DNA of 64,000 nucleotides from the IMG/VR virus record IMGVR_UViG_3300045988_144476. One strand, given 5' to 3'. A program made the translations under genes and the position numbers. This document shows, piece by piece, positions 3,591-47,022 of the stretch. Under the pieces are notes generated by a model, which saw nothing but the letters and a program-made list of their open reading frames with translations, did not search any database and had not been told where the DNA came from. Each line of letters starts with the position of its first letter. Within the stretch, counting starts at the first letter, position 1. This stretch comes from a virus.

Positions 3591-3881
3591 ATGAGTGCAT
3601 ATAAGCAGTTTATTACCAGACATTTTGAAAGCACTAATACATTTGTAACTCAGTTTTTCAAGGAAATTAATTCTCTCCCGGAAGTCGGAGATTTATTCGA
3701 AGGTAAAAGAGTGTTGGCTGTCACACCAATTTCAATGGATTGTGAACAGTTTTCAGATGATCATCATAATTATGAATTATATGAACTCGAATGTGGCGAG
3801 TATGAAAACAAATATAATGAGAACGGGGAAGATGAAACTACAACAGAAAGAGTATGCGTAAGAAAAGAAAATGAATTATGA
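3591..3881 (+). CDS. hypothetical protein
   Basis: 96-aa ORF, GAGGG SD. Confidence 0.65.
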   Translation: MSAYKQFITRHFESTNTFVTQFFKEINSLPEVGDLFEGKRVLAVTPISMDCEQFSDDHHNYELYELECGEYENKYNENGEDETTTERVCVRKENEL

Positions 3882-4789
3882 TAAAAAATAATAAAAATCA
3901 GCCAGTAAAAGGCTATAAAGTATTCAACCCAGATTGGACATGCCTGGGATTTCAGTATGAAGTAGGGAAGACATATGAAGAAGATGTAACACCAAAATGT
4001 TGCAACAAAGGATTTCATTTCTGCAAAGAATTGAAGGACTGCTTCAGTTATTATTCATTTGATCCTGACAACAAAGTTGCAAAGGTTATTGCATTAGGTG
4101 AAATTGATGAAAAATTAGATGATAGCAAATGTTGCACCAACAAGATTCAGATTGTTGAAGAAATCAGTTGGGAAGATGTTTTGAGAATGGTTAACCTTGG
4201 AGAAGGAAATGCAGGTTTTTGCAACGGCGGTAACTATAATACTGGTGACAGAAATACTGGTGACTATAATACTGGTTGCAAAAATACTGGTAACTATAAC
4301 ACTGGTGATTGGAACACTGGTAGCTGTAATGCTGGTAATTGGAATACTGGTTACAGAAATACTGGTGACTATAATACTGGTAATTGGAACACTGGTAGCT
4401 GTAATACTGGTAATTGGAACACTGGTGACTATAATATTATAGATGCATCTTCTGGATGCTTCTGTACAGAACATCAAAAGATCCTTATTTTCGATAAATT
4501 GTCTAACTGGACCATAAAAGACTGGTTTAGCAGTGATGCAAGATATATTCTTGATAGTATTCCAAATAATATTGTTGAGTGGATCTATGAATCAGATATG
4601 ACAGATATAGAAAAAGAAAAGAATCCAACGTACAAAACAACTGGTGGTTATTTAAAGATTCTTGATAAATCAGAAGCAGCGCAGGTCTGGTGGGATGGAT
4701 TAGATACTACAGACAAAAACATTATTAAATCAATTCCAAATTTTGATGCAGGAAAATTTCAAAAATGTACAGGTATTAAGGTTGATTAA
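3878..4789 (+). CDS. five-residue (N-T-G-x-aromatic/Cys) tandem-repeat protein, pentapeptide-repeat-like solenoid
   Basis: About 13 consecutive pentads NYNTG DRNTG DYNTG CKNTG NYNTG DWNTG SCNAG NWNTG and so on; N-terminal KGYKVFNPDW...GFHFC domain. Confidence 0.8.
   Translation: MIKNNKNQPVKGYKVFNPDWTCLGFQYEVGKTYEEDVTPKCCNKGFHFCKELKDCFSYYSFDPDNKVAKVIALGEIDEKLDDSKCCTNKIQIVEEISWEDVLRMVNLGEGNAGFCNGGNYNTGDRNTGDYNTGCKNTGNYNTGDWNTGSCNAGNWNTGYRNTGDYNTGNWNTGSCNTGNWNTGDYNIIDASSGCFCTEHQKILIFDKLSNWTIKDWFSSDARYILDSIPNNIVEWIYESDMTDIEKEKNPTYKTTGGYLKILDKSEAAQVWWDGLDTTDKNIIKSIPNFDAGKFQKCTGIKVD
4232..4435 (+). repeat. 15-nt tandem coding repeat (AAYACTGGTNNNNNN) x ~13
   Basis: Direct reading of the sequence; it also generates spurious ORFs 4197..4442(+) and 4115..4477(-). 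Confidence 0.9.
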
Positions 4790-8960: not shown

Positions 8961-8975
8961 TAATGATTTAATCAA
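8961..8975 (+). repeat. 15-nt intergenic motif copy
   Basis: TAATGATTTAATCAA. Confidence 0.7.
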
Positions 8976-9289: not shown

Positions 9290-9333
9290 GAGTTAGATTT
9301 AAGCTAGTAATCTAGGTAAAGGAGTGAGTGAGA

Positions 9334-9789
9334 ATGTGGAAGTTGGAGAGTTATATAAAAGAAGATAGGATCCCTTATATAACAAAAACAGAAATTTGTG
9401 ATGAAAAGGTTATTGTAAATACTCCAAAAAAAGTATTTAGCATGTTTAATACATATTTTAGTCTTGGACTAAGATCGGAAGAATATGTGTACATGGTTTC
9501 AATGGATACAAAGTGTAATGTTATTGGAATATTCGAAGTATCACATGGATGTATTAATCGGTCAATTCTAAGTCCAAGAGAAATTTTTATGAAAGCTTTG
9601 TTATCTGGGGCAGCTTCGATTATATTAGCACATAATCATCCAAGCGGAGATTGTTCTCCTTCACAAATGGACCGTGATTGTTGTTATAGAATACATAAAG
9701 CCGGAAAAATGTTAGGTATTGAACTAGCAGACTTTCTTGTAATAAGCGAAAAAACATACTGTTCTTTTAAAGAACAAGCATATTTGTGA
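9334..9789 (+). CDS. radC: RadC-like JAB/MPN metalloprotease-domain protein
   Basis: HNHPSGDCSPSQMD (JAMM H-x-H-P-S-G...S-x-x-D box); AAAGGAG SD. Confidence 0.85.
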   Translation: MWKLESYIKEDRIPYITKTEICDEKVIVNTPKKVFSMFNTYFSLGLRSEEYVYMVSMDTKCNVIGIFEVSHGCINRSILSPREIFMKALLSGAASIILAHNHPSGDCSPSQMDRDCCYRIHKAGKMLGIELADFLVISEKTYCSFKEQAYL

Positions 9790-9999: not shown

Positions 10000-10188
10000 A
10001 TGTGGAACGAACTTTATGATATTACACCTAATGAATTGAGTCAGATTATGGAGCTGTGTAGACACAGTGAGTGGATTTGTACAAGGTTTGAACCAAAAGA
10101 AACATTATATATTCTTTTTCTAAAAGTAGACGAAAATGATAATGTAATTGATAAAAGATCATTTGACTTTTTAAAATATAAATATTGA
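10000..10188 (+). CDS. hypothetical protein
   Basis: 62-aa ORF, GGAGGG SD. Confidence 0.55.
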   Translation: MWNELYDITPNELSQIMELCRHSEWICTRFEPKETLYILFLKVDENDNVIDKRSFDFLKYKY

Positions 10189-10197
10189 GGTGATCAT

Positions 10198-10890
10198 ATG
10201 GCAGTAGATATCAGAGAGAAGATCCAGAAGCTCTTAGCATTATCAAAATCATCAAATGAGCATGAAGCTTATGCAGCATTAATGAAAGCAAGGGAATTGA
10301 TTGCTAAGAACAAGCTTGATGAGAGAGAGTTTCAAAAGAAAGAAGAGAAGCAAGTGATTAAAACCATGAGCATTCAAGGATTGTCATTTAGCATGAGAAG
10401 AGATCCTTGGGTTCAATATCTTGCTCAGGTTGTTTCTGAGAACTATTGTTGTAAAACTTTCTTTGAGATGAAAAAGCGAACAAGATATGTAAATTTCTCT
10501 GGTCTTTCAGAAGATGTAGACATTTGTACTGATGTATTCAGATATGCATTGGAGTGTGCTAGATCTGGAATTGAGAAAGAGAAAAGAAAGTATTATAAAT
10601 CATCAACAAAAGAAAAAACACTTATATCAGATAGTTATGGCTGTGGTTTTGTGAAAGGGCTTAATGAAGCATTCATTAAACAGAATCAAGAAAATGAAAG
10701 AGATTGGGGATTAATATTAAAATGCCCTAAAGAAGTAAGTGATTTCATTGATAATATCACAGAAACGGTTAATACAAAGTGTAAAAAAGATGTTGATGAA
10801 TCAATATTTAATACCGGTTACGTTGAAGGCAAACAATTTACAACAAGAAAACAGTTAGGCGAAGAGAATGTCAAGATAGAAAGAAGTTAA
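10198..10890 (+). CDS. DUF2786-like protein
   Basis: N-terminus KIQKLLALSKSSNEHEAYAALMKARELIAK resembles the DUF2786 signature (recalled from memory, not searched). Confidence 0.6.
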   Translation: MAVDIREKIQKLLALSKSSNEHEAYAALMKARELIAKNKLDEREFQKKEEKQVIKTMSIQGLSFSMRRDPWVQYLAQVVSENYCCKTFFEMKKRTRYVNFSGLSEDVDICTDVFRYALECARSGIEKEKRKYYKSSTKEKTLISDSYGCGFVKGLNEAFIKQNQENERDWGLILKCPKEVSDFIDNITETVNTKCKKDVDESIFNTGYVEGKQFTTRKQLGEENVKIERS

Positions 10891-10895
10891 ATAAT

Positions 10896-11078
10896 ATGAC
10901 ACATTGCTATATATGTGATAAATCAGACATAACCAATCCAAATGTAAAAGTAACATATCATGGAAAAAGAAATGGTAAGAGGGTCCAAAAAACTATAAGG
11001 ATTTGTGGCAGCTGTGGATCCTGGATGACAGATGAGGAAATAAGAGAGCAGGTTAGAGAATGGGAAGGATGGGATTAA
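10896..11078 (+). CDS. small zinc-ribbon protein
   Basis: CYIC...CGSC pairs. Confidence 0.55.
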   Translation: MTHCYICDKSDITNPNVKVTYHGKRNGKRVQKTIRICGSCGSWMTDEEIREQVREWEGWD

Positions 11079-11079
11079 T

Positions 11080-11454
11080 ATGCAGATAATTAATCATGGG
11101 AGTATTATAGTGCCGCCAAATGCAAAGAGTTTACTTGTAACCATTTTAGATGTAGTAGGTTTTGAGTTTGTAGATGATAATATTTTAGTTGATGAAATAC
11201 AAGCTACCGTAGAAATTAACGAAGATGGAGATATTGAAGAGAAATTAAGAAAAGTAGTAGATGCATTTACTGCATTGGATATTTATATCAATGTAAGCGT
11301 TAATTATTATGGTGATTACGAAGGCAGATATATTGTAAGTGACGGAGATTTAATTGATTTAGATAAAACGGAAGTAGCCATTATGGATTCTAATGATGAT
11401 GATTTAATCAAAGAACTTGAGAACAGAGGATACAAAGTAACAAAAGAAGAGTAA
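11080..11454 (+). CDS. hypothetical acidic protein
   Basis: 124-aa ORF. Confidence 0.6.
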   Translation: MQIINHGSIIVPPNAKSLLVTILDVVGFEFVDDNILVDEIQATVEINEDGDIEEKLRKVVDAFTALDIYINVSVNYYGDYEGRYIVSDGDLIDLDKTEVAIMDSNDDDLIKELENRGYKVTKEE

Positions 11455-11485
11455 ATAATAAATTAAACAAAAGGAGATTGATATT

Positions 11486-11743
11486 ATGAAACAGATTATA
11501 AAATTTATAGATACAGATGTTGATGGTTGCGGCACAAACATAGAAATAATGATTCAAATTAAAGGTAAACATGAAATAACAAATGGGGTTATTCGAAGAA
11601 CATCAAATGTTATTGAAAAATATAAAAAAGATAATAAAGGAGAATGGGATACTGATAGCATTATCAGTACAGCATGTGAACATTTAAAAACAGAAGGTTA
11701 TACATGCTGCTATATCGCAGAAGATGCAACAATTGAATTTTAA
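11486..11743 (+). CDS. hypothetical protein
   Basis: 85-aa ORF, AAGGAG SD. Confidence 0.6.
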   Translation: MKQIIKFIDTDVDGCGTNIEIMIQIKGKHEITNGVIRRTSNVIEKYKKDNKGEWDTDSIISTACEHLKTEGYTCCYIAEDATIEF

Positions 11744-11775
11744 ATCAAAGATTTATTATAAAGGAGATTGATATT

Positions 11776-12759
11776 ATGATGACAAATTTAACTGGAGAAA
11801 GACGCACAAGTACAGTAACACATGTAGAATCCATGTTTGATGCAAGAGATACAAGAAAAAATCCGTGGGATGGACTTGGAAAAGAAATTAAAGGAGCAGT
11901 CACATCAAAGGATGCAATTAAATTGGCTGGCCTTGATTGGAATGTAGTATCAAGAGTTGTAGTTGACAAGACAACAGGAATTGAAATTCCAAACTGGAAG
12001 GCAAACGTAAGAGATATTGATGATAGTGTACTTGGTATGGTTTCAGGAAGATATCAGATTGTTCAGAATGAAGAAGCATTTGCTTTTACTGATTCTCTTC
12101 TTGGTGAAGGAGTTACATATGAAACGGCTGGTTCTCTTAACGGAGGTAAAAGAGTTTGGATGTTAGCTAGACTTGAAGGAAGAGATCTTGCCGGTGAAAA
12201 GATTGATCCGTATCTGGTATTTACAAACAGCCATGATGGAAAAGGATCTGTAAGAGTAGCAATGACTCCGATCAGAGTATGGTGTAGCAACACACTTAAC
12301 TTAGCATTAAGAAAAGCACAGAGACAGTGGAGTTGTACTCATACTGGAGATATTGGTGGCAAGCTTGAAGATGCAAGATTAACTATTATGAATTCAGAAA
12401 AATATCTTGGTGCTCTTAAAGATGAATTTGAAACATTGAAGATGCATAAAATCAGCAAAGATAAAATGTTTGATTTTACAAAGGAACTTCTTCCAATCGA
12501 TGCTGTAAAAGACACGGCTGTTAAGGTGAGAAGAATTACTGAGGAAAGAGAACTTCTCATGAATTGTTGGGATGCGCCAGATTTGCAGCAGACAGAAAAT
12601 AGCTTATTCAAGTTTGTAAATGCTGTATCTGATTTCTCAACACATAAACCAGCTAAGAGAAATACAAAAACTGGTCAGGAAAATAGATTTTATAGTGTAG
12701 TCAATGGAGATACATTGATTGATAAAGCTTATCAGATTGCTCAGAGGGAGTTGATTTAA
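11776..12759 (+). CDS. DUF932-like (phage/plasmid-associated) protein
   Basis: RYQIVQNEEAFAFTDSLLGEG...GSLNGGKRVWMLARL...VFTNSHDGKGSVRV pattern typical of the family (recalled). Confidence 0.75.
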   Translation: MMTNLTGERRTSTVTHVESMFDARDTRKNPWDGLGKEIKGAVTSKDAIKLAGLDWNVVSRVVVDKTTGIEIPNWKANVRDIDDSVLGMVSGRYQIVQNEEAFAFTDSLLGEGVTYETAGSLNGGKRVWMLARLEGRDLAGEKIDPYLVFTNSHDGKGSVRVAMTPIRVWCSNTLNLALRKAQRQWSCTHTGDIGGKLEDARLTIMNSEKYLGALKDEFETLKMHKISKDKMFDFTKELLPIDAVKDTAVKVRRITEERELLMNCWDAPDLQQTENSLFKFVNAVSDFSTHKPAKRNTKTGQENRFYSVVNGDTLIDKAYQIAQRELI

Positions 12760-17374: not shown

Positions 17375-18655
17375 ATGAAAGATTACTTGTTAGAGAAGTT
17401 CTTTGAAACAAAACGATGGGAAGCAGCAATTGAAACAGGAGTTATCAAAGGAATTAATAAATCTGAGTTAAGAAGATTATGTAGTCCGGAATACAGATTA
17501 GCATTATTAAATGCGATCATTACTGATAATTACGAAATAGCCCCTCCTCATCAAGCATTGATTCCAAAAGGGAATGGAGAATTTAGAACAGTTTATGTTA
17601 ATGAAGGAATGGACCGGATCTTCTTATCAATTGTAAATGATATGTTATTTGAACTTGATCATGATTCTATTCATCCTGCTTGTAAGAGTTATCAGAAAGG
17701 AATTGGATGTGGTAAGGTTGTTCAAGAAGTTGTAAGATGGATCGAAAATACTGACAGACAAGATATTGGATTCAAGGCAGATCTAAGTAAATATTTTGAT
17801 TCAGTTCCAATTGAATTTATTGATAAAGAGTTTGATCGGATTGAAAATAAATTTGGAAAATCAAAGATTATTAATGTGTTGCGAAAATATTATCATTGTG
17901 ATTTATGTTTTGATCCGGATGGAAATCTTATTGAACATTATCAGAGTCTTAAACAGGGTTGTGCAATTGGTTCATGGCTTGCAGATCGTGTGTTATATCA
18001 TATTGACGAACGATTAGATAGTTTATGTTCGACATGGGGAACAAGAGGAACATATATAAGATATTCTGATGATATATTATTAATTTCTCGGGAATATGAA
18101 AAAGGAATGGAAATCCTTAAAGAAGAACTTGAGAAAATGAATATGAAATTAAATCCAAAGAAAGTAGAACTACTTGATAAAGATCGATGGTTTAAATTCC
18201 TCGGATTTATGATCAAGGGTGATCAGATTACATTATCCAAAAGCAGAGTGAAAGATTTTCAGAAAGAAATTGAATCTCGGACCATTAAAAAGAGAAATAC
18301 AACCAAGACAAAAGCAATAAATAGTGTAAACAGATACCTATATAAAGGTGATGGAAAATATTCTTGGGCGACATCAGTACTTCCAATCATCAATGTACAG
18401 AAAGATGTTGATACGTTGAATGAATTTGTTATGGATTGTATTAGAGCTGCAGAAACAGGGAAAAAGAAAATTGGTGGTCTTGGGTGTGTGATCGATAAAG
18501 AAAATTATACAATTCTTCGAGGAACTGGAAGAAATGTAAAAGCAAATAAAATAAAAACAGAAAAAGATATTGAAGGATATAAGAGTATCCGGTGTATGCA
18601 GAATGCATTGAATTACAGCAGGCCGTTGTATGATACTTTGGTGAGGGAGATGTGA
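17375..18655 (+). CDS. reverse transcriptase (unclassified clade)
   Basis: Ordered RT motifs: IPKGNGEFRTV, ADLSKYFDSV, LKQGCAIGSWLAD, YIRYSDDILL (YxDD), LNPKKVELL, FKFLGFMI. Confidence 0.9.
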   Translation: MKDYLLEKFFETKRWEAAIETGVIKGINKSELRRLCSPEYRLALLNAIITDNYEIAPPHQALIPKGNGEFRTVYVNEGMDRIFLSIVNDMLFELDHDSIHPACKSYQKGIGCGKVVQEVVRWIENTDRQDIGFKADLSKYFDSVPIEFIDKEFDRIENKFGKSKIINVLRKYYHCDLCFDPDGNLIEHYQSLKQGCAIGSWLADRVLYHIDERLDSLCSTWGTRGTYIRYSDDILLISREYEKGMEILKEELEKMNMKLNPKKVELLDKDRWFKFLGFMIKGDQITLSKSRVKDFQKEIESRTIKKRNTTKTKAINSVNRYLYKGDGKYSWATSVLPIINVQKDVDTLNEFVMDCIRAAETGKKKIGGLGCVIDKENYTILRGTGRNVKANKIKTEKDIEGYKSIRCMQNALNYSRPLYDTLVREM

Positions 18656-18657
18656 TT

Positions 18658-19020
18658 ATGTATATTGTACCAAGGATAGAAGTAAGAGAAGCAGAAGATA
18701 TTATTGATTTTGCTACGACAATGGATTCAGATATGAATCTATACTTTGAAGAAAAGAAAACGTTGTTAGAAGATATACCAAGAGGTGAGAATCCCGGAAC
18801 TGCATATTATTCGTTTTATCCAGCGGTAATAAATCCTAAGCTGTTTTATGCGTATATTTTGGCAATTAAGTATTTTCAAGATGGTACATGTCAATGGAAA
18901 TTATGTTTAACATCTAGGGAAAATAAAAAGTGCCATATGACATTAGGAATTATGAGAGGAACTGAAGAAGAAGCGAAAGAACGACTTGCAACAATTCTTA
19001 CTTCTGGAAGTATTAGATGA
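18658..19020 (+). CDS. hypothetical protein
   Basis: ATG 18658 behind GAGGGAG; abuts the RT stop. Confidence 0.6.
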   Translation: MYIVPRIEVREAEDIIDFATTMDSDMNLYFEEKKTLLEDIPRGENPGTAYYSFYPAVINPKLFYAYILAIKYFQDGTCQWKLCLTSRENKKCHMTLGIMRGTEEEAKERLATILTSGSIR

Positions 19021-19036
19021 GAATTGAGGTGTAATT

Positions 19037-19618
19037 ATGGGCTGGACTTCTTATCATGCAGAATTCTACAAAAACGGAACTGTTGATCGGAAAAAAGAAA
19101 TTGATAAACTTTGGACTCAGGCAGAATGTAAAAAATATCCAGAGTTAAATGTATTGAAATCAAGAATGGTTGGTTCTACATATTATGCAGCAATTGAAGA
19201 AAAAGAGAAAGGTGTCGTTAAGAATGTATTCGCTGTAGTTGTATTAACATCTATAAATATGAAAGATTATTTTAATTTTTCATATAAAGAGATGGATGAA
19301 TCGGTTGGACCATATTGTTATGATTGTCCAAAAGGAATTCTTGATTTGCTAACAGAAACGGATAATGAATATGCAATAAATTGGAGAAACAAGTGTAGAG
19401 AAAATCTTCAGAAGAAAAAAGAAAAATTAACAAAAGGAACGTTGCCGGTTGGAAGTATTATTAAGGTCAAAAAATATAATGGTGAGTACGTAATATTACA
19501 AAAAATGTCACCAATGTATCAATTCAGGAGAGCCTGGTGGTATTGTGCAGAATCTAATACATATTATCCACTCAATCATATACCAGATGAATTTGAAATT
19601 ATTAAGAAGGGAGCTTAA
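19037..19618 (+). CDS. hypothetical protein
   Basis: 193-aa ORF, GAGGTG SD. Confidence 0.65.
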   Translation: MGWTSYHAEFYKNGTVDRKKEIDKLWTQAECKKYPELNVLKSRMVGSTYYAAIEEKEKGVVKNVFAVVVLTSINMKDYFNFSYKEMDESVGPYCYDCPKGILDLLTETDNEYAINWRNKCRENLQKKKEKLTKGTLPVGSIIKVKKYNGEYVILQKMSPMYQFRRAWWYCAESNTYYPLNHIPDEFEIIKKGA

Positions 19619-19620
19619 TT

Positions 19621-20238
19621 ATGAAGTTAAATGAAAAAATTATAGAAGCCATTGAAAACAATGGATTTTGTTGTAGTGCAGTTGTGGAACAGGATAATGG
19701 ATTTTATATTGAACTTTATCAAGACACGCCTGCAGGAGAAGATTGGCATGTAACAATCTGGTTTAATGGAAGTGACAATGAATTTATAAATTCATTCAGA
19801 AAGTATGCCGAAGATTTTGATGTTGATGAAGAAGCAGAAATTTGGATTAAATCAAGAGGTGAGCATGGAGTCCCAAGCAGCATCAGCCTATTAGTTAAAG
19901 ATGCTGAATGGAAAAAAGAAAAGCTTGGATTGTTACTTAAAGATCTTGAAGATATTGAACACGCAAATTTTAACGAAGGACTACTCACATTGATTATCTT
20001 GGACAATATAGATTGTGATGAGCCAGCTTCAGTATTTATGATTCCATTGATAAAACAAATAGAAGTAGAAAATCTTGCCAAAACAATTCATGCAACAAGT
20101 ACAGATAAAATTGAAGATGAATTTGAAGATTTATTAAGAGAAAAGAGAATTAAACATGAGTGGATCGGTCGTATATATGATGCTAACAGAGAAAAAGATT
20201 GGATTGACGATAAGATCTCAAGAGTAATTGTAGGATAA
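19621..20238 (+). CDS. hypothetical acidic protein
   Basis: 205-aa ORF, GGGAG SD. Confidence 0.65.
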   Translation: MKLNEKIIEAIENNGFCCSAVVEQDNGFYIELYQDTPAGEDWHVTIWFNGSDNEFINSFRKYAEDFDVDEEAEIWIKSRGEHGVPSSISLLVKDAEWKKEKLGLLLKDLEDIEHANFNEGLLTLIILDNIDCDEPASVFMIPLIKQIEVENLAKTIHATSTDKIEDEFEDLLREKRIKHEWIGRIYDANREKDWIDDKISRVIVG

Positions 20239-20253
20239 TGATGAATTAAGCAA
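20239..20253 (+). repeat. 15-nt motif, variant
   Basis: TGATGAATTAAGCAA. Confidence 0.4.
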
Positions 20254-20265
20254 AGGAATGATAAA

Positions 20266-20352
20266 ATGGCATTTAAGATAGTAATTGGATGGTTTGTATT
20301 TATGTATGGAACTGCATTGATTATGATTATAAAAGAAAGGAAAGAGATGTAA
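20266..20352 (+). CDS. possible 28-aa membrane peptide
   Basis: MAFKIVIGWFVFMYGTALIMIIKERKEM; stop overlaps next ATG (TAATG). Confidence 0.3.
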   Translation: MAFKIVIGWFVFMYGTALIMIIKERKEM

Positions 20353-20573
20353 TGCCTGAAAATATTTGGTTATATGGATTTGATGGTTTTGAAGGAACCA
20401 AAACAGTGGGTTTTGTAATTGCAAAATCATCAACAGAAGCGGTTGATAAAGTTTGGGATATGTATAATGACTTTGCAACTGATTATAATTTGTCAGATCT
20501 TGTGGTATGGAAACCAGAAGAAGATGATAACTATAGAGAAGATTATCCTAGTGTGATGGAAATTGTTTATTAG
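20352..20573 (+). CDS. hypothetical protein
   Basis: In-frame ATG 20352 behind AAAGGAAAGAG. Confidence 0.55.
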   Translation: MPENIWLYGFDGFEGTKTVGFVIAKSSTEAVDKVWDMYNDFATDYNLSDLVVWKPEEDDNYREDYPSVMEIVY

Positions 20574-20580
20574 TTATAAT

Positions 20581-20595
20581 TAATGTTTTAATCAA
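20581..20595 (+). repeat. 15-nt intergenic motif copy
   Basis: TAATGTTTTAATCAA. Confidence 0.7.
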
Positions 20596-20656
20596 ACCAC
20601 AATTAAATAATATGCATGAACACACATGAAATATACAATATCAATGAACTTTAATT

Positions 20657-20742
20657 AAGCTGCTTTAATACCAGCAGAGAGCCTGGTTTATCACCAGGCT
20701 TACTGCTGGTACAGCAGCTTCATATGAAACTGTTAAAGAAAT
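20657..20742 (+). repeat. hairpin-plus-box unit 1
   Basis: Three stacked 8-bp helices: aagctgct/agcagctt, accagcag/ctgctggt, agcctggt/accaggct, loop ttatc. Followed by box ATATGAAACTGTTAAAGAAAT. Confidence 0.7.
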
Positions 20743-20814
20743 GTGTAGAATTGATTGAGTGTATTAGAACCGGAGTATAACGGAAGATAAATGAGATATA
20801 TTTTGTTCAAGGCT

Positions 20815-20901
20815 AGATCCGTTCACTGGATCTGAACTGAAGATAATATCTTCAGAAAGATCCAGGAATGGATCTCCACCATATGAGACTTTTATAGAAA
20901 T
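20815..20901 (+). repeat. hairpin-plus-box unit 2
   Basis: Helices agatcc/ggatct, ctggatct/agatccag, ctgaagat/atcttcag. Followed by box ATATGAGACTTTTATAGAAAT. Confidence 0.7.
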
Positions 20902-20976
20902 ATACCGGATATATGAGTTTATCTAAAAAAAATATGTAGAATAACATTTATTAACAAGGTAATTAAATTCAATAGA

Positions 20977-21061
20977 AGGCGATAGATCAGCGAGGCTGCC
21001 CGGATTATCTTCCTGGCTGCCCGCTTTCCATACGCCTCTGATATGAAACAGTTTAAGAAAT
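20977..21061 (+). repeat. hairpin-plus-box unit 3 (weaker stem)
   Basis: Outer helix aggcg/cgcct, GC-rich interior with direct repeat GGCTGCCCG x2 and the same ttatc centre. Followed by box ATATGAAACAGTTTAAGAAAT. Confidence 0.5.
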
Positions 21062-21111
21062 ATTCCAAGATTACTGAGCTAATATATAATTTTACAAAGG
21101 AGATAGATGAA

Positions 21112-21615
21112 ATGATTGAAAGAGAAGAAATGATGACTTATTATGATAACCTTATGGATTGGGTAGAAAGAGGACATGCGTTTAGGATTGATTTAAAGAC
21201 AAAATCAATGCAGTTACTTTCAAATGAAAAATGTATTGAGAATGGAGATTGGTTTCCTGATGCTGATCTGATTCATATTAATGGAATTTGTGATGAAGAA
21301 GACAAAACGAAATTCTGTTTGGACATTATTGAAGAGCTTTACCATAATTACAAATATTCAACTCCAACAGAGAAGAGTGAACGATATAAACAGAGAAATT
21401 ATTTTAAAGCTTTATCTCCAGATGAAATGACTGATGAAGAATTAGTTAACGGTGAAGACAGAAATGTTGCAAAAGCAAAACTTGAAGGATTTATTCTTTG
21501 TGCTTCATTGGCCGGTTATCTTACTTGGGATGAAAAGAAAATGGGCAAATGGTTTTATCAGGGAAAAGATAAGGATCTTGTGATTTTAAGAGAATGGGTG
21601 GAGGTAAGAAGTTAA
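21112..21615 (+). CDS. hypothetical protein
   Basis: Start placed at ATG 21112, 9 nt after AAGGAG. The ORF-track start at 21043 has no SD and coincides with box 3. Confidence 0.6.
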   Translation: MIEREEMMTYYDNLMDWVERGHAFRIDLKTKSMQLLSNEKCIENGDWFPDADLIHINGICDEEDKTKFCLDIIEELYHNYKYSTPTEKSERYKQRNYFKALSPDEMTDEELVNGEDRNVAKAKLEGFILCASLAGYLTWDEKKMGKWFYQGKDKDLVILREWVEVRS

Positions 21616-21618
21616 ATA

Positions 21619-21975
21619 ATGAAAAAGGAATTGAAGAATTATATATTCAAAACTACAACTACAATGAAAGAATACAATAATAAGAAATGGTATATTAATT
21701 CAGATGTAATTCCTGAATTTCAGGTTCAAGCAACTTCTATTAATGAAGCGTTATTGAAATATAAAGATTATGTATATAAAGAAGGTATTATTAACATATC
21801 TGATAATGCATTAAAGACTAAACAGAAAATGTATATTGATACGGTTGATGGTGTAAAACAAGTTGGATATGTAATTACCGGACAGACTGAAATTCTATGT
21901 GAAAATTACAAATGGATCAAACAATATATTGATTTATGGGTAAAAATACTTACTGTTGTTGATACGGAATTTTAA
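21619..21975 (+). CDS. hypothetical protein
   Basis: 118-aa ORF, GGAGG SD. Confidence 0.65.
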   Translation: MKKELKNYIFKTTTTMKEYNNKKWYINSDVIPEFQVQATSINEALLKYKDYVYKEGIINISDNALKTKQKMYIDTVDGVKQVGYVITGQTEILCENYKWIKQYIDLWVKILTVVDTEF

Positions 21976-21996
21976 TATAAAGGAGAGATAAATAAT

Positions 21997-23181
21997 ATGA
22001 ATAACTGGAATTATTTTGATAGCCCAGAATTATATAAAAAAGTAGAAATTCTTTTAAATGATGGTTCTGTTAGACAGGATATGATGATAAAAGGCAAGTA
22101 TGATACCAATGAATGGCGTAACTATACAAATCATAGTGTAACAGCTTGGAGATATATTGAAGAGTCTAATAATAAAGAATTAATTAAAAAGGAGAATAAA
22201 ACAATGATGAAAAACACAAGAGAAAACAGAGTAGCAACAATGCAGTCAGCAGGAATTGACACAAAGAAATATTTTAGTATCAATCTTCCAGAAGGACTTA
22301 AACCAGGATCAGTGATTTCATTAGTTATTGATGAAAATGGTAATCCTGCAATTGCTACAGAAACAGAAGAAAAAACAACTAAAAAGATAATTGATCCTGA
22401 ACTTGAACAGTATAATAGTATTATAAGTCAGATTGAGAATGGTTATGTAAGAAATTCTAAATTACATAGAAGATGGGTAATGGCACAGATGTTCAGAATG
22501 CTTAATTCTTCACTTGGATATAATGAGTGTTTGAAACGTAGATATGATTATAAGTATCAGTTTAATATGCTGATTGATGAACTGAATGCTCTTGGACATT
22601 TACAGAGGGAAGATCCTGAAGAGTTTAAAGACAGATTAAGTTTCTTCAATAAAGATGTGGTTATTGCTTTATGTAATGATTATTATGAAAAATTAAAGAA
22701 AGTAGTAGATAGTCTTCCAGAAAAGAAATGCGAAGGCAAACCGTATGTAAGAATTAGTGGAAATAATATTTTTATTGATGATTTAAATGATAAATTATAT
22801 ATTCCAATTTTAAACAGTATTATAGGTATTCAATATTGTACTTCTTATGAAGCACTTAGCAACTTATTAAAGAATTTTGTAAGGCTTTTTGTAAATAGAT
22901 ATACACTTCCTTACAACACAAGTAAATGTGCAGCATGGGTAGATGCTTATAAAGGAGCTGGAGCTTATTATACAATGATGAACATGGTTAAATTTCATAA
23001 TTGTTTTATTACTAATAATACTACCGGAGAAGTTTACATAGGAATGAAAGCAGTTGGATATCTTAAAACGTTAAATGTTGTTCATGAGGGTTATGGATAC
23101 AGAATGTTTGCCGAAATGAATAGAATGATTGAAGAAAATCATTTTGATTTTAATGGAAGAATGAGAGAAATTTATTCTTAA
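21997..23181 (+). CDS. hypothetical protein
   Basis: 394-aa ORF with AAGGAG SD; a second strong internal SD plus ATGATG near 22204 is in frame. Confidence 0.7.
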   Translation: MNNWNYFDSPELYKKVEILLNDGSVRQDMMIKGKYDTNEWRNYTNHSVTAWRYIEESNNKELIKKENKTMMKNTRENRVATMQSAGIDTKKYFSINLPEGLKPGSVISLVIDENGNPAIATETEEKTTKKIIDPELEQYNSIISQIENGYVRNSKLHRRWVMAQMFRMLNSSLGYNECLKRRYDYKYQFNMLIDELNALGHLQREDPEEFKDRLSFFNKDVVIALCNDYYEKLKKVVDSLPEKKCEGKPYVRISGNNIFIDDLNDKLYIPILNSIIGIQYCTSYEALSNLLKNFVRLFVNRYTLPYNTSKCAAWVDAYKGAGAYYTMMNMVKFHNCFITNNTTGEVYIGMKAVGYLKTLNVVHEGYGYRMFAEMNRMIEENHFDFNGRMREIYS

Positions 23182-23253
23182 AACTTTCATAATGCATAAT
23201 TAATACGAAAGCAAATATATATTGCAATTTCCATAAGGTATATTAATTTAATT

Positions 23254-23342
23254 AATCAGGCTATGTATGATGACATCTAGGAGGCGCATCGCCTCCATAT
23301 GTCATCTCCAGAGCCTGATTAATATGAAACATTTATAGAATT
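23254..23342 (+). repeat. hairpin-plus-box unit 4
   Basis: Helices aatcaggct/agcctgatt, gatgacat/atgtcatc, ggaggcg/cgcctcc. Followed by box ATATGAAACATTTATAGAATT. Confidence 0.7.
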
Positions 23343-23544
23343 ATATACGAATATACAGAATGGAAATAATTACCAGAATTTCCAGAAATTACATGTTATT
23401 CCGATTTATCGGATAGTGTATAATGGTATTATATACCAAAAACGAAAATATGTTCGATTTTTTATATTGAAAATGTTTTTGTAATATGGTATAACAATAT
23501 TAATTTAAGCAAACACATGTTCGAAAAATCGGGAGGAATGCAGC

Positions 23545-23814: not shown

Positions 23815-23826
23815 GTTGATATTAGA

Positions 23827-23858
23827 AGATCAGTACTAATTGGTACTGGTCTTTTTTT
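23827..23858 (+). terminator. rho-independent terminator
   Basis: 10-bp stem agatcagtac/gtactggtct (one G-U), loop taattg, followed by a T7 run. Confidence 0.8.
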
Positions 23859-23882: not shown

Positions 23883-24551
23883 ATGATGGAAAGAGAAGTA
23901 ATAGTTTCAATTAAAGATTGTGAGAAAATTACAGGATTACATTTTACATTAAATCATCAGGGTAAGATGAAAGGTATGCAGAGCTTATCAACTAGCTGCA
24001 CATGTAATGAACATTGTAAAAGCAGATCAAAAAATACATCAACGGTATGCTCTCATTGTTATGCTCAGAGACAAATGAAAATATATAAAAATCTTGAAAA
24101 GTGTTTGATCAAGAATACGAAGATTCTTACAGAACAGGTTATCTCAAAAGAAAATTTGCCAATTATTAATGCGTTATATTTTAGACTTGAAGCATTTGGA
24201 GATTTAAATAATACAACACAAGTAATTAATTATTTTAATTTATGTAAAAAGAATCCGGATGTCAAATTTGGATTATGGAGTAAAAATTTATGGTTGATTG
24301 AAGCTGCAATTAATGATGGAAATTCCAAACCCAAAAACTTGCAGATCATTTATAGTATTCCTTTTCTAAATGATCGAAATGATAATATTTTTATTTTATA
24401 TCCTTTTGTTGATAAGATTTTTACAGTATTTGAAAAAAATTTTATTAAGAAAAATGATATAGAAATTAATTGTGGGGCTAAGAGCTGCTTATGTTGTGGA
24501 AAATGTTATAAGAAAAACAAAGTAAAGTATATAAACGAGCGTCTTAAATAA
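23883..24551 (+). CDS. Cys-rich protein of unknown function
   Basis: 222 aa; CTCNEHC...CSHCYAQ and C-terminal CGAKSCLCCGKC clusters. Confidence 0.65.
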   Translation: MMEREVIVSIKDCEKITGLHFTLNHQGKMKGMQSLSTSCTCNEHCKSRSKNTSTVCSHCYAQRQMKIYKNLEKCLIKNTKILTEQVISKENLPIINALYFRLEAFGDLNNTTQVINYFNLCKKNPDVKFGLWSKNLWLIEAAINDGNSKPKNLQIIYSIPFLNDRNDNIFILYPFVDKIFTVFEKNFIKKNDIEINCGAKSCLCCGKCYKKNKVKYINERLK

Positions 24552-24563
24552 TGATTTAATCAA
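24549..24563 (+). repeat. 15-nt intergenic motif copy
   Basis: TAATGATTTAATCAA; supplies the stop codon of the upstream gene. Confidence 0.7.
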
Positions 24564-26575: not shown

Positions 26576-27559
26576 ATGAGTTTTGTCAAAAAGAAGATCT
26601 GGTATACATGTGAAGAAGATCATAAATCTTTTCCTATTACGGAAGATTCTTTGCTACGATATAAAATAAATACACCGAAGGATATTTCGAAAGAAGGAAA
26701 AATTCTTATTGAAAATTATCTTGGTGGAGTACATACAAGGTGGATATGTAGACCTTTCAATCCAGAAACTGATAAGAAGCCTGAACCCAATTATTATGTC
26801 CCGTTAAATCGTACAATATCAAATAGAATCAAGGCAAAAATAGATCAGATGACTGAAGAAGAAAGGCAAAAAAATAATTGTTTTGCATGTTGTACAGAAG
26901 GTGAAGCAGCAGATGATTTTCTAGAATATGTTAAAGAACAAGAAGAGTACTTTGCTAAAGAAAAATATATGTCATGTTATACTCCTCGTTCGACTTATGA
27001 TAAAAAAGATTACAATTTAGAAGAAAGGATATATGCCTGTGCTCTTGGAGTAAGAGAGTCTTGTGATAGAAATCATGTAACTTTACCTATGTGTGGCACA
27101 CCGGCATTTAATGAACTTGAAGAAATAATCAAAGATTACGATCCAAGATATCTTCATCCTAAGACAGATGATGATAGGTATAGCAAACTCTATAGAGATG
27201 CAAAGAAAGAAGCAATAGCGAAAGGCAAAGATCCACAGAAAATTGATGTCATTCAGGAATATCAGAAAGATCGGAAACCGCAGACATCATTATCACCGGA
27301 AATGATTAGCAGGTTTGATAGAATGAGTGATTCTACATTAGCAATGTGGTGTAATTTCAGTAAGAACTGGGCTTGGGTAGTACCATGTTTATTCTTGTGC
27401 TTGTTCGTTAATAAGGGACTTATATCTGCAATTGTACTTATTGTATTAATGATTGCTGGCGAAGTTTATTCTTCAATGGTAAATGAATATGTCTCTGTGA
27501 TTATTCCATGGTATAAGAAATCAGGACAGATGATGGAAAAGAGGATATTGAAAAAATGA
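26576..27559 (+). CDS. hypothetical protein with C-terminal membrane segments
   Basis: 327 aa; GAGGAGG SD; WAWVVPCLFLCLFVNKGLISAIVLIVLMIAG. Confidence 0.7.
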   Translation: MSFVKKKIWYTCEEDHKSFPITEDSLLRYKINTPKDISKEGKILIENYLGGVHTRWICRPFNPETDKKPEPNYYVPLNRTISNRIKAKIDQMTEEERQKNNCFACCTEGEAADDFLEYVKEQEEYFAKEKYMSCYTPRSTYDKKDYNLEERIYACALGVRESCDRNHVTLPMCGTPAFNELEEIIKDYDPRYLHPKTDDDRYSKLYRDAKKEAIAKGKDPQKIDVIQEYQKDRKPQTSLSPEMISRFDRMSDSTLAMWCNFSKNWAWVVPCLFLCLFVNKGLISAIVLIVLMIAGEVYSSMVNEYVSVIIPWYKKSGQMMEKRILKK

Positions 27560-28536
27560 ATGGAAGATTAGAACATGAATTACAGACAAATGAACGTACA
27601 AAAAAATTATTAAAAGAATTGCCTGATTATGTTACATCATATTATATGCATATTCAATCTTCAAAAAGTGCTAATACTTGTTATACATATGTTAATACAG
27701 TAAAAAGATTTATGGAATATATTGGAAATATGAATATTAATAATGTAACAGAAGATACTGTGCAAAAGTTCTTAGAATCTATTAAGTATATAAACAATAA
27801 TGGAAAACTGCATAGATCTTCAGTATCATATACAAAATTATCATGCAGTTCGCTTAGTTCATTTTTCTTATTTCTATATCGAAAGGGAATTATAGATAAT
27901 AATCCAATGGAATTTATTGAAATGCCAATAAGAAAGGATTCTGTAAAAAGAGTTTTTTTCTCAATGGATGATCTTCGTAGCCTTTTATTTACTGTAACAG
28001 ATTCAAATAGAGGTACATATACATGGTTATTAAGAGATTATACAATTTTATATTTATTTATGGTTACAGGAATGAGAAAGACTGCATTAAGTGAAATAAA
28101 CGTAGAAGATCTTGATTTAAATAACAATATATTAAAAATTATTGACAAGCGAGATAAAGAACATATTTATATTCTTCCGGACGATGTAAAGAAAGTTCTT
28201 GCTAAATGGTTAGTATATAGACGTAGATATATGAATGAACAGAATTTTGAAATAGATGCATTATTTATTTCAAAAAAGCATAATAGATTAAGTCCTAATG
28301 CAATATATAAAACTGTAAGATATTATACTGAAAAAGCTTTTGGTAAAGCATACAGCCCTCATAAATTAAGAGCGGCTTTTGTCTCACTATATTATGAAGA
28401 AACACATGATATTGAAGCAGTAAGAGACGCTGTAGGACATGCTGATACACAAACAACCAGTCGATATATTGTTAAAAATAATAATCCAAGAAAAGAGGCA
28501 GCCAAGTTTATTTCAAATGGTATACGAGGGAAATAA
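27556..28536 (+). CDS. tyrosine recombinase / integrase
   Basis: TGMRKTALSEINVEDLD (Arg-I box), HKLRAAF (H-x-x-R), GHADTQTTSRY (His/Tyr box). Confidence 0.9.
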   Translation: MNGRLEHELQTNERTKKLLKELPDYVTSYYMHIQSSKSANTCYTYVNTVKRFMEYIGNMNINNVTEDTVQKFLESIKYINNNGKLHRSSVSYTKLSCSSLSSFFLFLYRKGIIDNNPMEFIEMPIRKDSVKRVFFSMDDLRSLLFTVTDSNRGTYTWLLRDYTILYLFMVTGMRKTALSEINVEDLDLNNNILKIIDKRDKEHIYILPDDVKKVLAKWLVYRRRYMNEQNFEIDALFISKKHNRLSPNAIYKTVRYYTEKAFGKAYSPHKLRAAFVSLYYEETHDIEAVRDAVGHADTQTTSRYIVKNNNPRKEAAKFISNGIRGK

Positions 28537-30861: not shown

Positions 30862-30876
30862 TAATGATTTAATCAA
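30862..30876 (+). repeat. 15-nt intergenic motif copy
   Basis: TAATGATTTAATCAA followed by AAGGAG. Confidence 0.7.
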
Positions 30877-34200: not shown

Positions 34201-34368
34201 CTTGTAGCTGATATTGAAGCAAAAGGAGGTAAAGTTGTGTCCGGAGTAACTAAGGCAACAGATTATCTTATTACAAATGATAAGACAAGTGGATCCAGTA
34301 AGAATAAAAAAGCTGCTGAATTAAGTATTCCTATTATTAGCGAAGAAGAATATATTAATTTATCATAA
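31201..34368 (+). CDS. ligA: NAD-dependent DNA ligase LigA, intein-containing precursor
   Basis: N-terminal Ia-like DKEFDKLYDEL, MMSLDK, KMDG adenylation motif. After the intein: TRGNATVGE, Cys4 zinc finger CPYCG...CLNAQC, HhH region, C-terminal BRCT (GKKFCITG). Confidence 0.92.
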   Translation: MNKTIRIKELVRMLNMYCDAYYNRNESIISDKEFDKLYDELLDLEKETGIILSNSPTQHVGYEVKSELQKVKHSHLMMSLDKTKDVNELIKFIGNHECVLMNKMDGCFIGDTRITMANYKTKKIKDIKIGDEVLSYDLNGKICTSKVKNIYNNGLKTFDEWVDLQLYDYLLKSNKYHVTCTKNHKIYTPNGYKEAGNLNVGDYVYVHNKKISQDQSDILLGILLGDGWFVNRSKLKEKSLKNKLEIHYSKTKSKHYDDLIYQLQKKFITFNSTISYRTSGYSSKENNMVNLNLGVIDVPDYFCNSKNHLRCGFTFTEEICKHLSPLALAMFYLDDGSKIQCQNDGFDVYNVKNTCLLHTNRHKKESVKILSDYLKSIGVSNNIRFEKCLKNYDFGDGYIIYIDAEGTEVFFDMIAKYIPKEFRKIKLGLKDKWQNCECFNFEDDDSNYSLIETQITNIKNGFRRSPSQSHITRKTAYDLEIENTHCYFANGFAVHNCTMLLTYENGELIQAETRGNATVGELVTHNAKVFENIPLHIDYSGYLEVEGEAIITYNDFDNINDTIKDPDKKYKNPRNLAAGSVRQLNSEIAKGRHLKFILWKVPTGMNHINSFKERLENAREVGFDIVPFVTVDSAEDINGAIDGLKNVAKNLSYPIDGMVITYEDIDYGLSLGVTDKFPRHSFAFKFYDEEYETTLQDVEWTIGKSGQLTPTAVFEPVEIDGTEVSRASLHNVSIFKAFDMHVGDTIMVYKANQIIPQIKENLSKGSNTGTKLSIPQKCPYCGEPTIVVKENDSEVLMCLNAQCQGKLLGELCAFVGKKAHDIKGLSEATLSLMIHTGMVHSPIDLYHLEDKRKELTYFPKMGSKKVDNILKAIEESRNTTLEKFIVGLNIPLIGSRAAKDIAKHEEIRTKEAKLVKPINTFIVDAAENYDFTHIEGLGIERNNSIHNYFKENYDYVCAMASLFKFPEMNLETENISTSTSLEGKKFCITGKLQKFANRDALVADIEAKGGKVVSGVTKATDYLITNDKTSGSSKNKKAAELSIPIISEEEYINLS
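31519..32688 (+). mobile_element. intein with LAGLIDADG homing-endonuclease domain
   Basis: Begins CFIGDT directly after KMDG and ends AVHN followed by +1 Cys (CTMLLTYENG); LLGILLGDGWF and LAMFYLDDGS dodecapeptide motifs; 390 codons. Confidence 0.88.
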
Positions 34369-34380
34369 TGTTTTAATCAA
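34366..34380 (+). repeat. 15-nt intergenic motif copy
   Basis: TAATGTTTTAATCAA; includes the ligA stop. Confidence 0.7.
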
Positions 34381-34387
34381 AAAGATA

Positions 34388-34416
34388 TTGACATACGAAG
34401 AAATGTGTGATATAGT
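34388..34416 (+). promoter_or_regulatory. sigma-A-type promoter with extended -10
   Basis: TTGACA, 17-nt spacer, TGaTATAGT; motif copies on both sides (34366, 34435). Confidence 0.65.
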
Positions 34417-34434
34417 AACATCAACAAATGCAAA

Positions 34435-34449
34435 TAAAGTTTTAATCAA
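34435..34449 (+). repeat. 15-nt motif, variant
   Basis: TAAAGTTTTAATCAA. Confidence 0.6.
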
Positions 34450-34462
34450 AAGGAAATAAAAA

Positions 34463-35182: not shown

Positions 35183-35194
35183 TGATTTAATCAA
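35180..35194 (+). repeat. 15-nt intergenic motif copy
   Basis: TAATGATTTAATCAA followed by AAGGAG. Confidence 0.7.
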
Positions 35195-35208
35195 AAGGAG
35201 AGACAGAA

Positions 35209-37281: not shown

Positions 37282-37295
37282 TCTTTAATAATAAA

Positions 37296-37310
37296 TAATG
37301 ATTTAATCAA
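37296..37310 (+). repeat. 15-nt intergenic motif copy
   Basis: TAATGATTTAATCAA followed by AAGGAG. Confidence 0.7.
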
Positions 37311-37323
37311 AAGGAGTAGAAAA

Positions 37324-43885: not shown

Positions 43886-43900
43886 TAATGTTTTAATCAA
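43886..43900 (+). repeat. 15-nt intergenic motif copy
   Basis: TAATGTTTTAATCAA. Confidence 0.7.
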
Positions 43901-44007: not shown

Positions 44008-44022
44008 TAATGATTTAATCAA
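44008..44022 (+). repeat. 15-nt intergenic motif copy
   Basis: TAATGATTTAATCAA, 13 nt before tRNA-Gln. Confidence 0.7.
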
Positions 44023-44035: not shown

Positions 44036-44109
44036 TGGGCATTCGCCAAGCGGTAAGGCTCAGCACTTTGACTGCTGCATTTTCGTTGGTTCGAATCCAA
44101 CATGCCCAG
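44036..44109 (+). tRNA. tRNA-Gln (anticodon TTG)
   Basis: Acceptor tgggcat/atgccca, anticodon arm cagca-cTTTGAc-tgctg, T arm gttgg-ttcgaat-ccaac; close to Bacillus-type tRNA-Gln from memory. Confidence 0.9.
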
Positions 44110-47021: not shown

Positions 47022-47022
47022 T

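Follow-up and report, generated by a model that had tools for sequence, protein, structure and literature searches.

The locus treated here raises the question whether a phage reverse transcriptase (RT) gene with no template RNA at its side works alone or is one part of a larger system. The gene, an open reading frame (ORF) of 426 aa, lies at 17375..18655 on the + strand of a 64,000-nucleotide stretch of DNA (here called the window) from the IMG/VR virus record IMGVR_UViG_3300045988_144476. It had been described as an orphan in the original prediction, a description that did not hold, for two accessory genes and four predicted template units were found 2-6 kb downstream of it. With a probability of about 0.9, a temperate Lachnospiraceae-type gut phage carries here a complete UG27 retroelement system with a split layout, and the RT serves as the polymerase of that system. 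The parts of the system span 6.0 kb (17375-23374), all on the + strand, which is within the 20-kb operational definition given in a recent preprint (bioRxiv 10.64898/2026.09.22.753630). The UG27 family has already been described, and the locus is an ordinary member with a slightly atypical layout and motif.

UG27 was defined as a Class 2 UG/Abi RT by Mestre et al. in 2022. In that paper the family is often met in human-gut phages of Bacteroidetes and Firmicutes, and no defence-island enrichment was seen for it; two gene clusters without known function go with it, along with an intergenic non-coding RNA (ncRNA) (PMC9226505). The gene had been called unusual for a phage, which does not agree with a family known since 2022 and common in gut phages. 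UG27 loci were described by Li et al. (bioRxiv 10.64898/2026.09.22.753630, September 2026) as an RT, two accessory genes named sORF and bORF, and an array of units of about 135-167 nt whose structure is kept and whose sequence varies. Five systems gave YSDD-dependent single-stranded DNA (ssDNA) hairpins of 50-100 nt in E. coli, and a locus of Blautia hansenii was among the systems tested. Removing either of the accessory ORFs eliminated the product in the two systems, of the five, in which this was tried, and the RT alone gave no product in the systems tested. Synthesis started at the AUC of an AUC-N7-UANAG motif, ran across the central hairpin and ended after UUYA. Gene order was variable, extra units were possible in neighbouring intergenic regions, and gain or loss of single units in the arrays was normal; the biological role was given as unknown, with no significant complementarity of the hairpins to phage or host genomes (bioRxiv 10.64898/2026.09.22.753630). 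Used here for comparison were two characterised loci, in the prophages of Alistipes putredinis DSM 17216 (L082) and of Phocaeicola coprophilus DSM 18228 (L056), together with the locus of an isolated Bacteroides phage, BS-TP1 (L007).

Family and conservation of the reverse transcriptase

The translation of the ORF contained all the palm motifs that had been quoted for it, namely IPKGNGEFRTV, ADLSKYFDSV, LKQGCAIGSWLAD, YSDD, LNPKKVELL and FKFLGF. Against the PADLOC profiles the RT matched RT_UG27 with 693 bits (E 3.5e-209) over profile positions 1-420 of 420, while the runner-up, RT_UG26, reached 117.7 bits. The length of 426 aa is within the canonical UG27 range of 380-450 aa and YSDD is intact. 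In a comparison of 10 diverse members, drawn from phages of Firmicutes and of Bacteroides, D136 and Y230-S231-D232-D233 were invariant. The C-terminal extension of about 150 aa was also strongly conserved from Firmicutes to Bacteroides phages, and lies inside the family profile. More than 4,600 homologues were found at E<=1e-10, including proteins from the genomes of Blautia intestinalis and Eubacterium ventriosum, and identity to Bacteroidota UG27 members was 57-63%. A search of solved structures with the RT sequence gave RTs of group II introns and of retron type as the nearest (E 1e-8 to 1e-7), and it did not bring up a structure from UG27.

In line with the original prediction, the RT is genuine and catalytically intact, and is a non-DGR, non-intron and non-retron enzyme related to the UG/Abi/DRT kind. 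The observations that had suggested isolation were reproduced. The gene abuts its neighbours, with the 5' ORF stopping at 17365 and the RT stop overlapping the GTG start of the ORF at 18652..19020. It is literally true that no template RNA is directly adjacent, and no intron or retron RNA was found anywhere in the window by Rfam at gathering thresholds. Pfam gave RVT_1 alone (83.8 bits, residues 63-280), with no maturase or endonuclease domain in the RT. A sensitive self-BLAST of the window gave no A-biased pair resembling the template and variable repeats (TR/VR) of a diversity-generating retroelement (DGR), the repeats found being those inside a pentapeptide-repeat gene and three other pairs (two direct, one inverted), none A-biased.

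Several RT classes were considered and rejected. A DGR was rejected on this self-BLAST result and on the lack of a DGR RT profile among the matches listed for every library scanned with the RT. A group II intron was rejected because there was no intron RNA, TIGR04416 scored 92.7 bits against a cutoff of 300, RVT_1 was the sole domain and the coding neighbours abut. A retron was rejected because the RT has no non-coding space beside it, retron RT profiles reached only 45-60 bits (45.6 bits for RT_Ec107-like in PADLOC; 60 bits for retron_St85 in NCBIfam, where the cutoff is 235) and no retron RNA matched. All NCBIfam group II, retron and Drt models were far under their cutoffs.

Accessory genes of the system

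The gene neighbourhood was compared with those of relatives whose RTs are 69-98% identical to that of the window (L001-L006, L009-L012 and L092-L094). The layout 3' of the RT was shared, and consisted of variable genes, a non-coding gap of 0.5-0.9 kb, a gene of about 160 aa, a gene of about 400 aa, a gap of about 0.35 kb and a GP88-like gene. The counterparts in the window were the gap 20574-21111, the ORF 21112-21615, the ORF 21997-23181 and the gap 23182-23544.

The first ORF (21112..21615, +, 167 aa) was identified by homology as the small accessory protein sORF, being 32% identical to gp80 of BS-TP1 (E 4e-24), 38% to the protein of the A. putredinis system (E 4e-26) and 39% to that of P. 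coprophilus (E 4e-27). The second (21997..23181, +, 394 aa) was homologous to the large accessory protein bORF of the characterised systems, with 30% identity to BS-TP1 gp82 (E 1e-44), 33% to A. putredinis DSM 17216 (E 7e-54) and 34% to P. coprophilus DSM 18228 (E 9e-53). By tblastn, each of them was present beside the RT in 76-77 of about 91 UG27 loci. Neither sORF nor bORF had a Pfam or PHROG match, in line with bioRxiv 10.64898/2026.09.22.753630, and neither had a PDB match by sequence profile. More than 1000 homologues of bORF were found, almost none with a Pfam domain. Its AlphaFold2 model had a mean predicted local distance difference test score of 75, above 90 over most of residues ~160-394, and no PDB structural neighbour was found for it (best E 0.26, template modelling score <=0.15).

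The start of sORF needed correction. A program-called ORF of 190 aa begins at ATG 21043, which is the AUG in the tail motif of the third RNA unit. Gene callers give a 167-aa gene in L001 and L092, starting after a ribosome-binding site, AAAGGAGA. Because this comparison shows a 167-aa gene after AAAGGAGA, the true sORF start is placed at the internal ATG at 21112, and the ATG at 21043 is, on this sequence evidence, artefactual. Gene callers may thus swallow part of the ncRNA array (21043-21111).

In two independent Bacteroidales loci from metagenome-assembled genomes (MAGs), L018:2432-4018 and L062:8001-9614, the UG27 RT was fused in frame, through a linker of about 20 aa, to the conserved C-terminal half of sORF, giving proteins of 529 and 538 aa. 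These natural fusions support a physical interaction of RT and sORF.

The alternative that the RT stands alone, as a defence or anti-defence enzyme of the type of defence-associated reverse transcriptases (DRT) or abortive infection (Abi) proteins, for example with untemplated or protein-primed synthesis, would agree with a gene that abuts its neighbours and has no ncRNA beside it. AbiK and DRT9 of the wider UG/Abi family do make untemplated or homopolymeric DNA, and the RT has weak similarity to the Drt9, Drt2 and Drt3a profiles, at 47-73 bits. The UG27 score of 693 bits stands against <=118 for any other group (73, 49 and 48 bits for Drt9, Drt2 and Drt3a in PADLOC), and both accessory genes and four RNA units lie within 6 kb, in synteny across the clade. 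The UG27 RTs tested alone gave no product (bioRxiv 10.64898/2026.09.22.753630). A DRT/Abi defence RT was rejected on the profile scores, on the phage-borne gene and on the lack of defence-island enrichment of UG27 (PMC9226505). The defence reading found no support, and a stand-alone enzyme is considered very improbable.

Structured RNA units

Both non-coding gaps (20574-21111 and 23182-23544) fold far below shuffled sequences, with z of -9.7 and -8.3. Four units of one design were found in them, each composed of a 5' element ACAAGG..AATTYAAT, a near-perfect hairpin of 60-70 nt whose sequence differs from unit to unit, and a conserved tail ATATGARAC..TTANAGAAAT. A scan of the window for the tail pattern ATATGARACNNTTANAGAA at <=2 mismatches gave 6 copies, where 0.67 were expected, and 4 of the 6 were in the two gaps. 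In every relative, the tail motif was confined to the syntenic gaps with a spacing of about 160 nt.

A covariance model, R1, was built from an alignment of 31 units of the clade and was run over both strands of the whole window with filters off. It gave the four units only, with 87-102 bits, while the next match had 15.6 bits (E 0.64). Unit 1 (20616..20773, +, 158 nt) scored 101.3 bits (E 4.6e-17) and has the tail motif AUAUGAAACUGUUAAAG; unit 2 (20774..20931, +, 158 nt) scored 87.4 bits (E 1.9e-14) with the tail motif AUAUGAGACUUUUAUAG; unit 3 (20935..21092, +, 158 nt) scored 99.5 bits (E 9.8e-17) with the tail AUAUGAAACAGUUUAAG; and unit 4 (23213..23374, +, 162 nt), which is solitary and lies 3' of bORF, scored 101.8 bits (E 3.6e-17) with the tail AUAUGAAACAUUUAUAG. 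A solitary unit after bORF was present in nearly all UG27 loci examined, and 383 distinct candidate units were collected over all loci.

The internal-loop motifs of the four units were 5' UUYAAU and 3' AUAUGARAC..UUANAG. In the 31-unit alignment each unit is closed by two basal helices (7 + 6 bp), and 13 of the 13 pairs had compensatory double changes. In the basal helices 94.1% of the cells were paired, compared with 67.2% in shuffles, of which 0 of 500 came up to the real value, and with 33-52% after sliding of the partner columns.

Tests beyond the training set gave further evidence. R1 recovered units that had not been used for training, at 84-130 bits, in L003, L004 and L092-L094. In other clades it matched BS-TP1 (E 5e-5), L013 (E 1e-13 to 3e-6) and, with a best E of 1e-3, the A. 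putredinis array. As a non-circular test, a second profile, R2, was made from Bacteroidota units only, among them the units of A. putredinis and P. coprophilus. Its top two matches in the window were unit 1 (E 3.8e-5) and unit 2 (E 1.1e-3). R2 was a sequence-only profile because RNAalifold gave no consensus pairs on the MAFFT alignment, which makes the cross-clade structural comparison weak.

It had been proposed that the RT could make a complementary DNA (cDNA) from structured non-coding loci at 2.3, 20.7, 23.3 and 46-47 kb. This proposal stood for 20.7 and 23.3 kb, which are UG27 template units by homology, and failed for 2.3 and 46-47 kb, where no UG27 unit was found by R1 or R2. By covariance-model scans, neither of these last two structured loci, nor the large gap at 25.2-26.6 kb, is a UG27 unit. 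A fifth unit in the second half of the second gap (23375-23544) was also rejected, as it resembles a conserved promoter/operator region.

The units could instead be regulatory RNAs of the downstream genes (terminators, attenuators or small RNAs), with the RT copying some other RNA, such as those at 2.3 kb or 46-47 kb. Unit 3 does end right before the ribosome-binding site of sORF, and other gaps of the window are structured too; a RAGATH-27 RNA and tRNAs are found at 44-47 kb. The size, architecture, synteny and motif grammar of the units match those of units shown to be reverse-transcribed (bioRxiv 10.64898/2026.09.22.753630), the silence of R1 and R2 at 2.3 and 46-47 kb applies here as well, and hairpins that are hypervariable yet always paired are unlike terminators. 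Regulatory RNAs are the least probable of the explanations considered.

The apical loops of the central hairpins were enriched for UAUC, and also for the related UAAC and UACC. In the window the apices were TTTATCA (unit 1), ATAATATC (unit 2) and GATTATCTT (unit 3). An apical TATC was seen in 26% of units, compared with 6.8% of control windows; within the AUG clade, 48% of the units had it. No mention of this enrichment was found in the available parts of the UG27 papers (PMC9226505 and bioRxiv 10.64898/2026.09.22.753630). The apical UAUC may be a recognition element, or merely a stable loop.

Predicted templates and products

The 5' motif UUYA was present in 4 of the 4 units of the window, and N7-UANAG in 3 of the 4. 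By the published rule, each template was taken to begin directly behind UUYA and to include, at its other end, the AU(N) of the tail motif. The predicted template of unit 1 (20654-20726, +, 73 nt) forms an RNA hairpin of -42.1 kcal/mol with z -7.9, and its complementary DNA has z -9.9. That of unit 2 (20810-20885, +, 76 nt) has z -7.9 as RNA and -6.7 as complementary DNA; the values are -3.9 and -4.1 for unit 3 (20972-21045, +, 74 nt), and -7.3 and -7.8 for unit 4 (23251-23326, +, 76 nt). The predicted lengths of 73-76 nt are inside the published range of 50-100 nt (bioRxiv 10.64898/2026.09.22.753630).

By homology, each central hairpin should be copied into an ssDNA hairpin of 73-76 nt by RT, sORF and bORF together. 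With 2 kb of cargo between the RT and the array, the RT must act in trans on the array transcript. This transcript would be made from a signal of its own or by read-through. Each unit would then fold, and a complex of RT, sORF and bORF would recognise the conserved internal-loop motifs. Synthesis would start at the AU(G) of the 3' motif, copy the central hairpin and stop after the 5' UUYA. By analogy with the five systems of bioRxiv 10.64898/2026.09.22.753630, the outcome would be four different ssDNA hairpins.

Cargo genes and split layout

Between the RT and the array lie about 1.9 kb of non-conserved cargo genes (18652..20573, +). Four ORFs were called there, of 122 aa (18652-19020), 193 aa (19037-19618, Pfam DUF6927), 205 aa (19621-20238) and 94 aa (20289-20573), and they had tblastn matches in 2-12 of about 91 loci, mostly from the clade of the window itself. 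Another non-conserved insert, an ORF of 118 aa (21619..21975, +), lies between sORF and bORF. The window was its sole match among L001-L091; an ORF of equal length was called at the same position in L092, and no similarity was found to the gene at the equivalent position of BS-TP1. These five ORFs are regarded as cargo because they matched in just 1-12 loci, compared with 76-77 for sORF and bORF. No UG27 unit was detected inside the cargo (18652-20573) by R1. In some relatives the cargo slot carried P22_AR_N antirepressor-like genes, for example L003:12556-13752 and L005:11939-13135, and in the window it is filled by DUF6927 and ORFs of unknown function.

The split layout is a trait of the clade. 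In the clade of the window the first unit motif occurs 1.95-4.2 kb after the RT stop, with variable coding cargo between, and the arrays have 3-4 units plus 1, every unit with ATG. In Bacteroidota-type loci, including two characterised ones, the first motif is 125-150 nt after the RT stop, and the arrays have 4-9 units plus 1 of the ATC type. A Prevotella MAG locus (L013) has ATG-type units directly beside its RT, so the split layout and the ATG motif are separable. The split layout combined with the AUG variant is particular to this Lachnospiraceae-phage clade, which makes the locus a slightly atypical member and not a new kind of system.

Turnover of the array

The array was compared between the window (20935-21092) and the relatives L092:11184-11517, whose RT is 98% identical, and L001:13430-13771, whose RT is 87% identical. 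Each of the two relatives has one extra unit that the window cleanly lacks. L092 has practically the same units 1 and 2 as the window, while the hairpin of unit 3 is sharply diverged from its L092 counterpart. Unit 3 of the window is orthologous to unit 3 of L001 and L092, with a unit-3-like hairpin and a unit-4-like 3' flank. The sequences suggest that the missing unit was lost by deletion, through recombination between conserved motifs of neighbouring units.

Such a loss might also be a sign of decay, in which the insertion of cargo broke the operon and left the RT, the array or both as non-functional relics. The 2 kb between RT and array (about 130 nt in characterised loci), the deviant UUAAG of unit 3 and the single unit fewer than in the 98%-identical relative could all be taken in this sense. 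The split layout is clade-wide, being found on many contigs with RTs 69-98% identical, and the loss of single units is normal turnover (bioRxiv 10.64898/2026.09.22.753630). In addition, the catalytic residues, the accessory proteins, the unit flanks and the pairing of the basal helices have all been kept, which points to purifying selection on every part. Decay is the least remote of the rival explanations and is still very improbable.

Points of disagreement

Several observations weigh against the assignment to a working UG27 system. The separation of RT and array is unlike that of the characterised Bacteroidota loci. The trinucleotide in the tail was AUG, not the published AUC, in 31 of the 31 clade units, so the start nucleotide differs from the mapped one; the grammar of the motif and its spacing are unchanged. 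For ATC-N7-TANAG, the exact form that was published, the window showed no enrichment (13 matches, with 12 expected), and the ATG variant was recognised only by direct reading of the gaps. Unit 3 reads UUAAG where the consensus is UANAG. Since the four units of the window were in the training set of R1, their high scores are by construction, and the independent evidence is the lack of other matches in the window and the recovery of untrained units. R1 detected none of the P. coprophilus units, and R2 was weak for unit 3 (E 0.43) and not significant for unit 4. Scans for promoter and terminator consensus sequences within the locus gave nothing above chance; a terminator-like hairpin was seen at 23824-23855. 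As to the role proposed below, it is speculation, and a search for hairpin targets in the rest of the window gave one 14-mer (50909-50922), which was judged not significant.

Phage context and other features of the window

The module had been taken as lytic-type. A tyrosine integrase was found at 27556-28536, and relatives were present in the chromosomes of Blautia intestinalis, Ruminococcus sp. and Eubacterium ventriosum as well as in IMG/VR contigs. Because an integrase is encoded and relatives sit in bacterial chromosomes, the element is a temperate Lachnospiraceae-type phage, not a lytic-type one. A megablast of the region 16-20 kb against deposited phages gave no match, and a protein-mode search was needed.

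The genes of the RT region are all on the + strand. On the 5' side of the RT were a DUF7666/pentapeptide-repeat protein, RadC, DUF2786/DUF7168 and DUF932 (3878-4789, 9328-9789, 10198-10890 and 11776-12759, in this order), together with a helix-turn-helix protein. The internal DNA repeats of the pentapeptide-repeat gene are at 4192-4436. The set of RadC, DUF2786/DUF7168, DUF932 and pentapeptide proteins resembles the anti-restriction or leading regions of mobile elements, and may mark an early accessory region of anti-restriction type.

A motif TAATG(A/T)TTTAATCAA occurs over the whole window, with 28 copies at <=2 mismatches against 3.75 expected, and 27 of the 28 are on the + (coding) strand. 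Sites include 3-17, 2215-2229, 2288-2302, 8961-8975, 20581-20595, 24549-24563, 30862-30876, 34366-34380, 35180-35194, 37296-37310, 43886-43900, 44008-44022, 61629-61643 and 62425-62439, and most copies are just after stop codons or ahead of genes. The motif probably serves this phage as a promoter or regulatory element of its own. The copy at 20581..20595 (+), TAATGTTTTAATCAA, lies about 20 nt 5' of unit 1 and may be such an element for the array; a copy with 1 mismatch (17122) lies about 240 nt 5' of the RT start.

The region 23375-23544 after unit 4 contains promoter-like hexamers (TTGAAA, 17 nt, TGGTATAAC) between two ATGTTCGA repeats, behind which come a ribosome-binding site and the start (ATG) of an 89-aa gene. 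The region, which L001, L009 and L005 have conserved, resembles a regulated promoter for the next operon.

Rfam matches in the window were a RAGATH-27 RNA and four tRNAs only, at 44-47 kb (44036-47165). The RAGATH-27 RNA (45970-46055, 89.6 bits, over the gathering score) lies within a tRNA cluster (Gln, Leu, Met), and ARAGORN gave an extra tRNA (47088-47165) whose 4-nt anticodon, 'agcg', is odd. RAGATH-27 and the tRNAs are unrelated to the UG27 units. Diverged intergenic direct repeats were also observed, 34366-34455 with 62425-62511 (73%) and 35139-35215 with 37255-37331 (70%). In both pairs at least one copy includes the TAATG..TTTAATCAA motif, and they show no A-bias and are not DGR-like.

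Relation to known systems and significance

The locus agrees with the UG27 systems L082, L056 and L007 in the RT family, in the homology of both accessory proteins and in the order array-sORF-bORF. It also shares with them units of about 160 nt, with a hypervariable central hairpin between 5' UUYA and 3' AU(N)-N7-UANAG (UUAAG in unit 3), a solitary unit after bORF, a phage or prophage context, and arrays that gain and lose single units. Unlike the Bacteroidota systems, the clade of the window has 2-4 kb of variable cargo from RT to array (theirs begins about 130 nt after the RT stop), AUG in place of AUC, shorter arrays (3-4 + 1 against 4-9 + 1), and possible small extra genes between sORF and bORF.

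Retrons likewise have a dedicated structured ncRNA that is partly copied into a short, stable ssDNA hairpin with the need for accessory proteins, a likeness which for the window would follow from homology. Unlike retrons, the window has no msr-msd by the RT, its template is a multi-unit array, its accessory proteins are unrelated, and the system is phage-borne with no link to defence islands. DRT2, DRT9 and AbiK belong to the same RT superfamily, and DRT2 and DRT9 also need a nearby ncRNA. Those are host defence genes, whereas the RT of the window is a phage gene, and in place of short hairpins the products of these enzymes are long DNA, concatemeric or homopolymeric (bioRxiv 10.64898/2026.09.22.753630).

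The UG27 RT of BS-TP1 (GenBank PQ571274.1) at 10001-11263 was deposited as 'tail protein', and its array of about 8 units (11264-12612) is unannotated. Annotation pipelines thus miss UG27 systems, as this entry and the mechanical ORF calling that runs over unit 3 of the window both illustrate. Read one gene at a time, the RT looks like an orphan; a comparison of its neighbourhood with those of relatives reveals a full UG27 system.

UG27 is widespread in human-gut phages, and its output of cDNA hairpins has only just been described. As a guess of low confidence, the system would benefit the phage, in host conflict or in the establishment of infection or lysogeny, for example through ssDNA decoys or ligands, because it is phage-borne, has around it what is probably an early region with many anti-restriction-like genes, and shows a fast turnover of its hairpins between near-identical phages. 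A more specific idea is regarded as unlikely. Here the RT, uncoupled from its array by a variable cargo island and using an AUG start site, would belong to a complex that acts fully in trans with an altered start-site rule, and, if selection lies behind the turnover, the cDNA hairpins could, as decoys or ligands, be determinants of specificity that evolve fast in the conflict of phage and host. If this were true, the clade would be a natural handle on UG27 function. The traits of the clade, which is a common one among Firmicutes phages, could help in testing what sets the start site, and the split layout, the one-base change of the motif and the turnover of units and hairpins could help in the design of trans-acting or reprogrammable versions.

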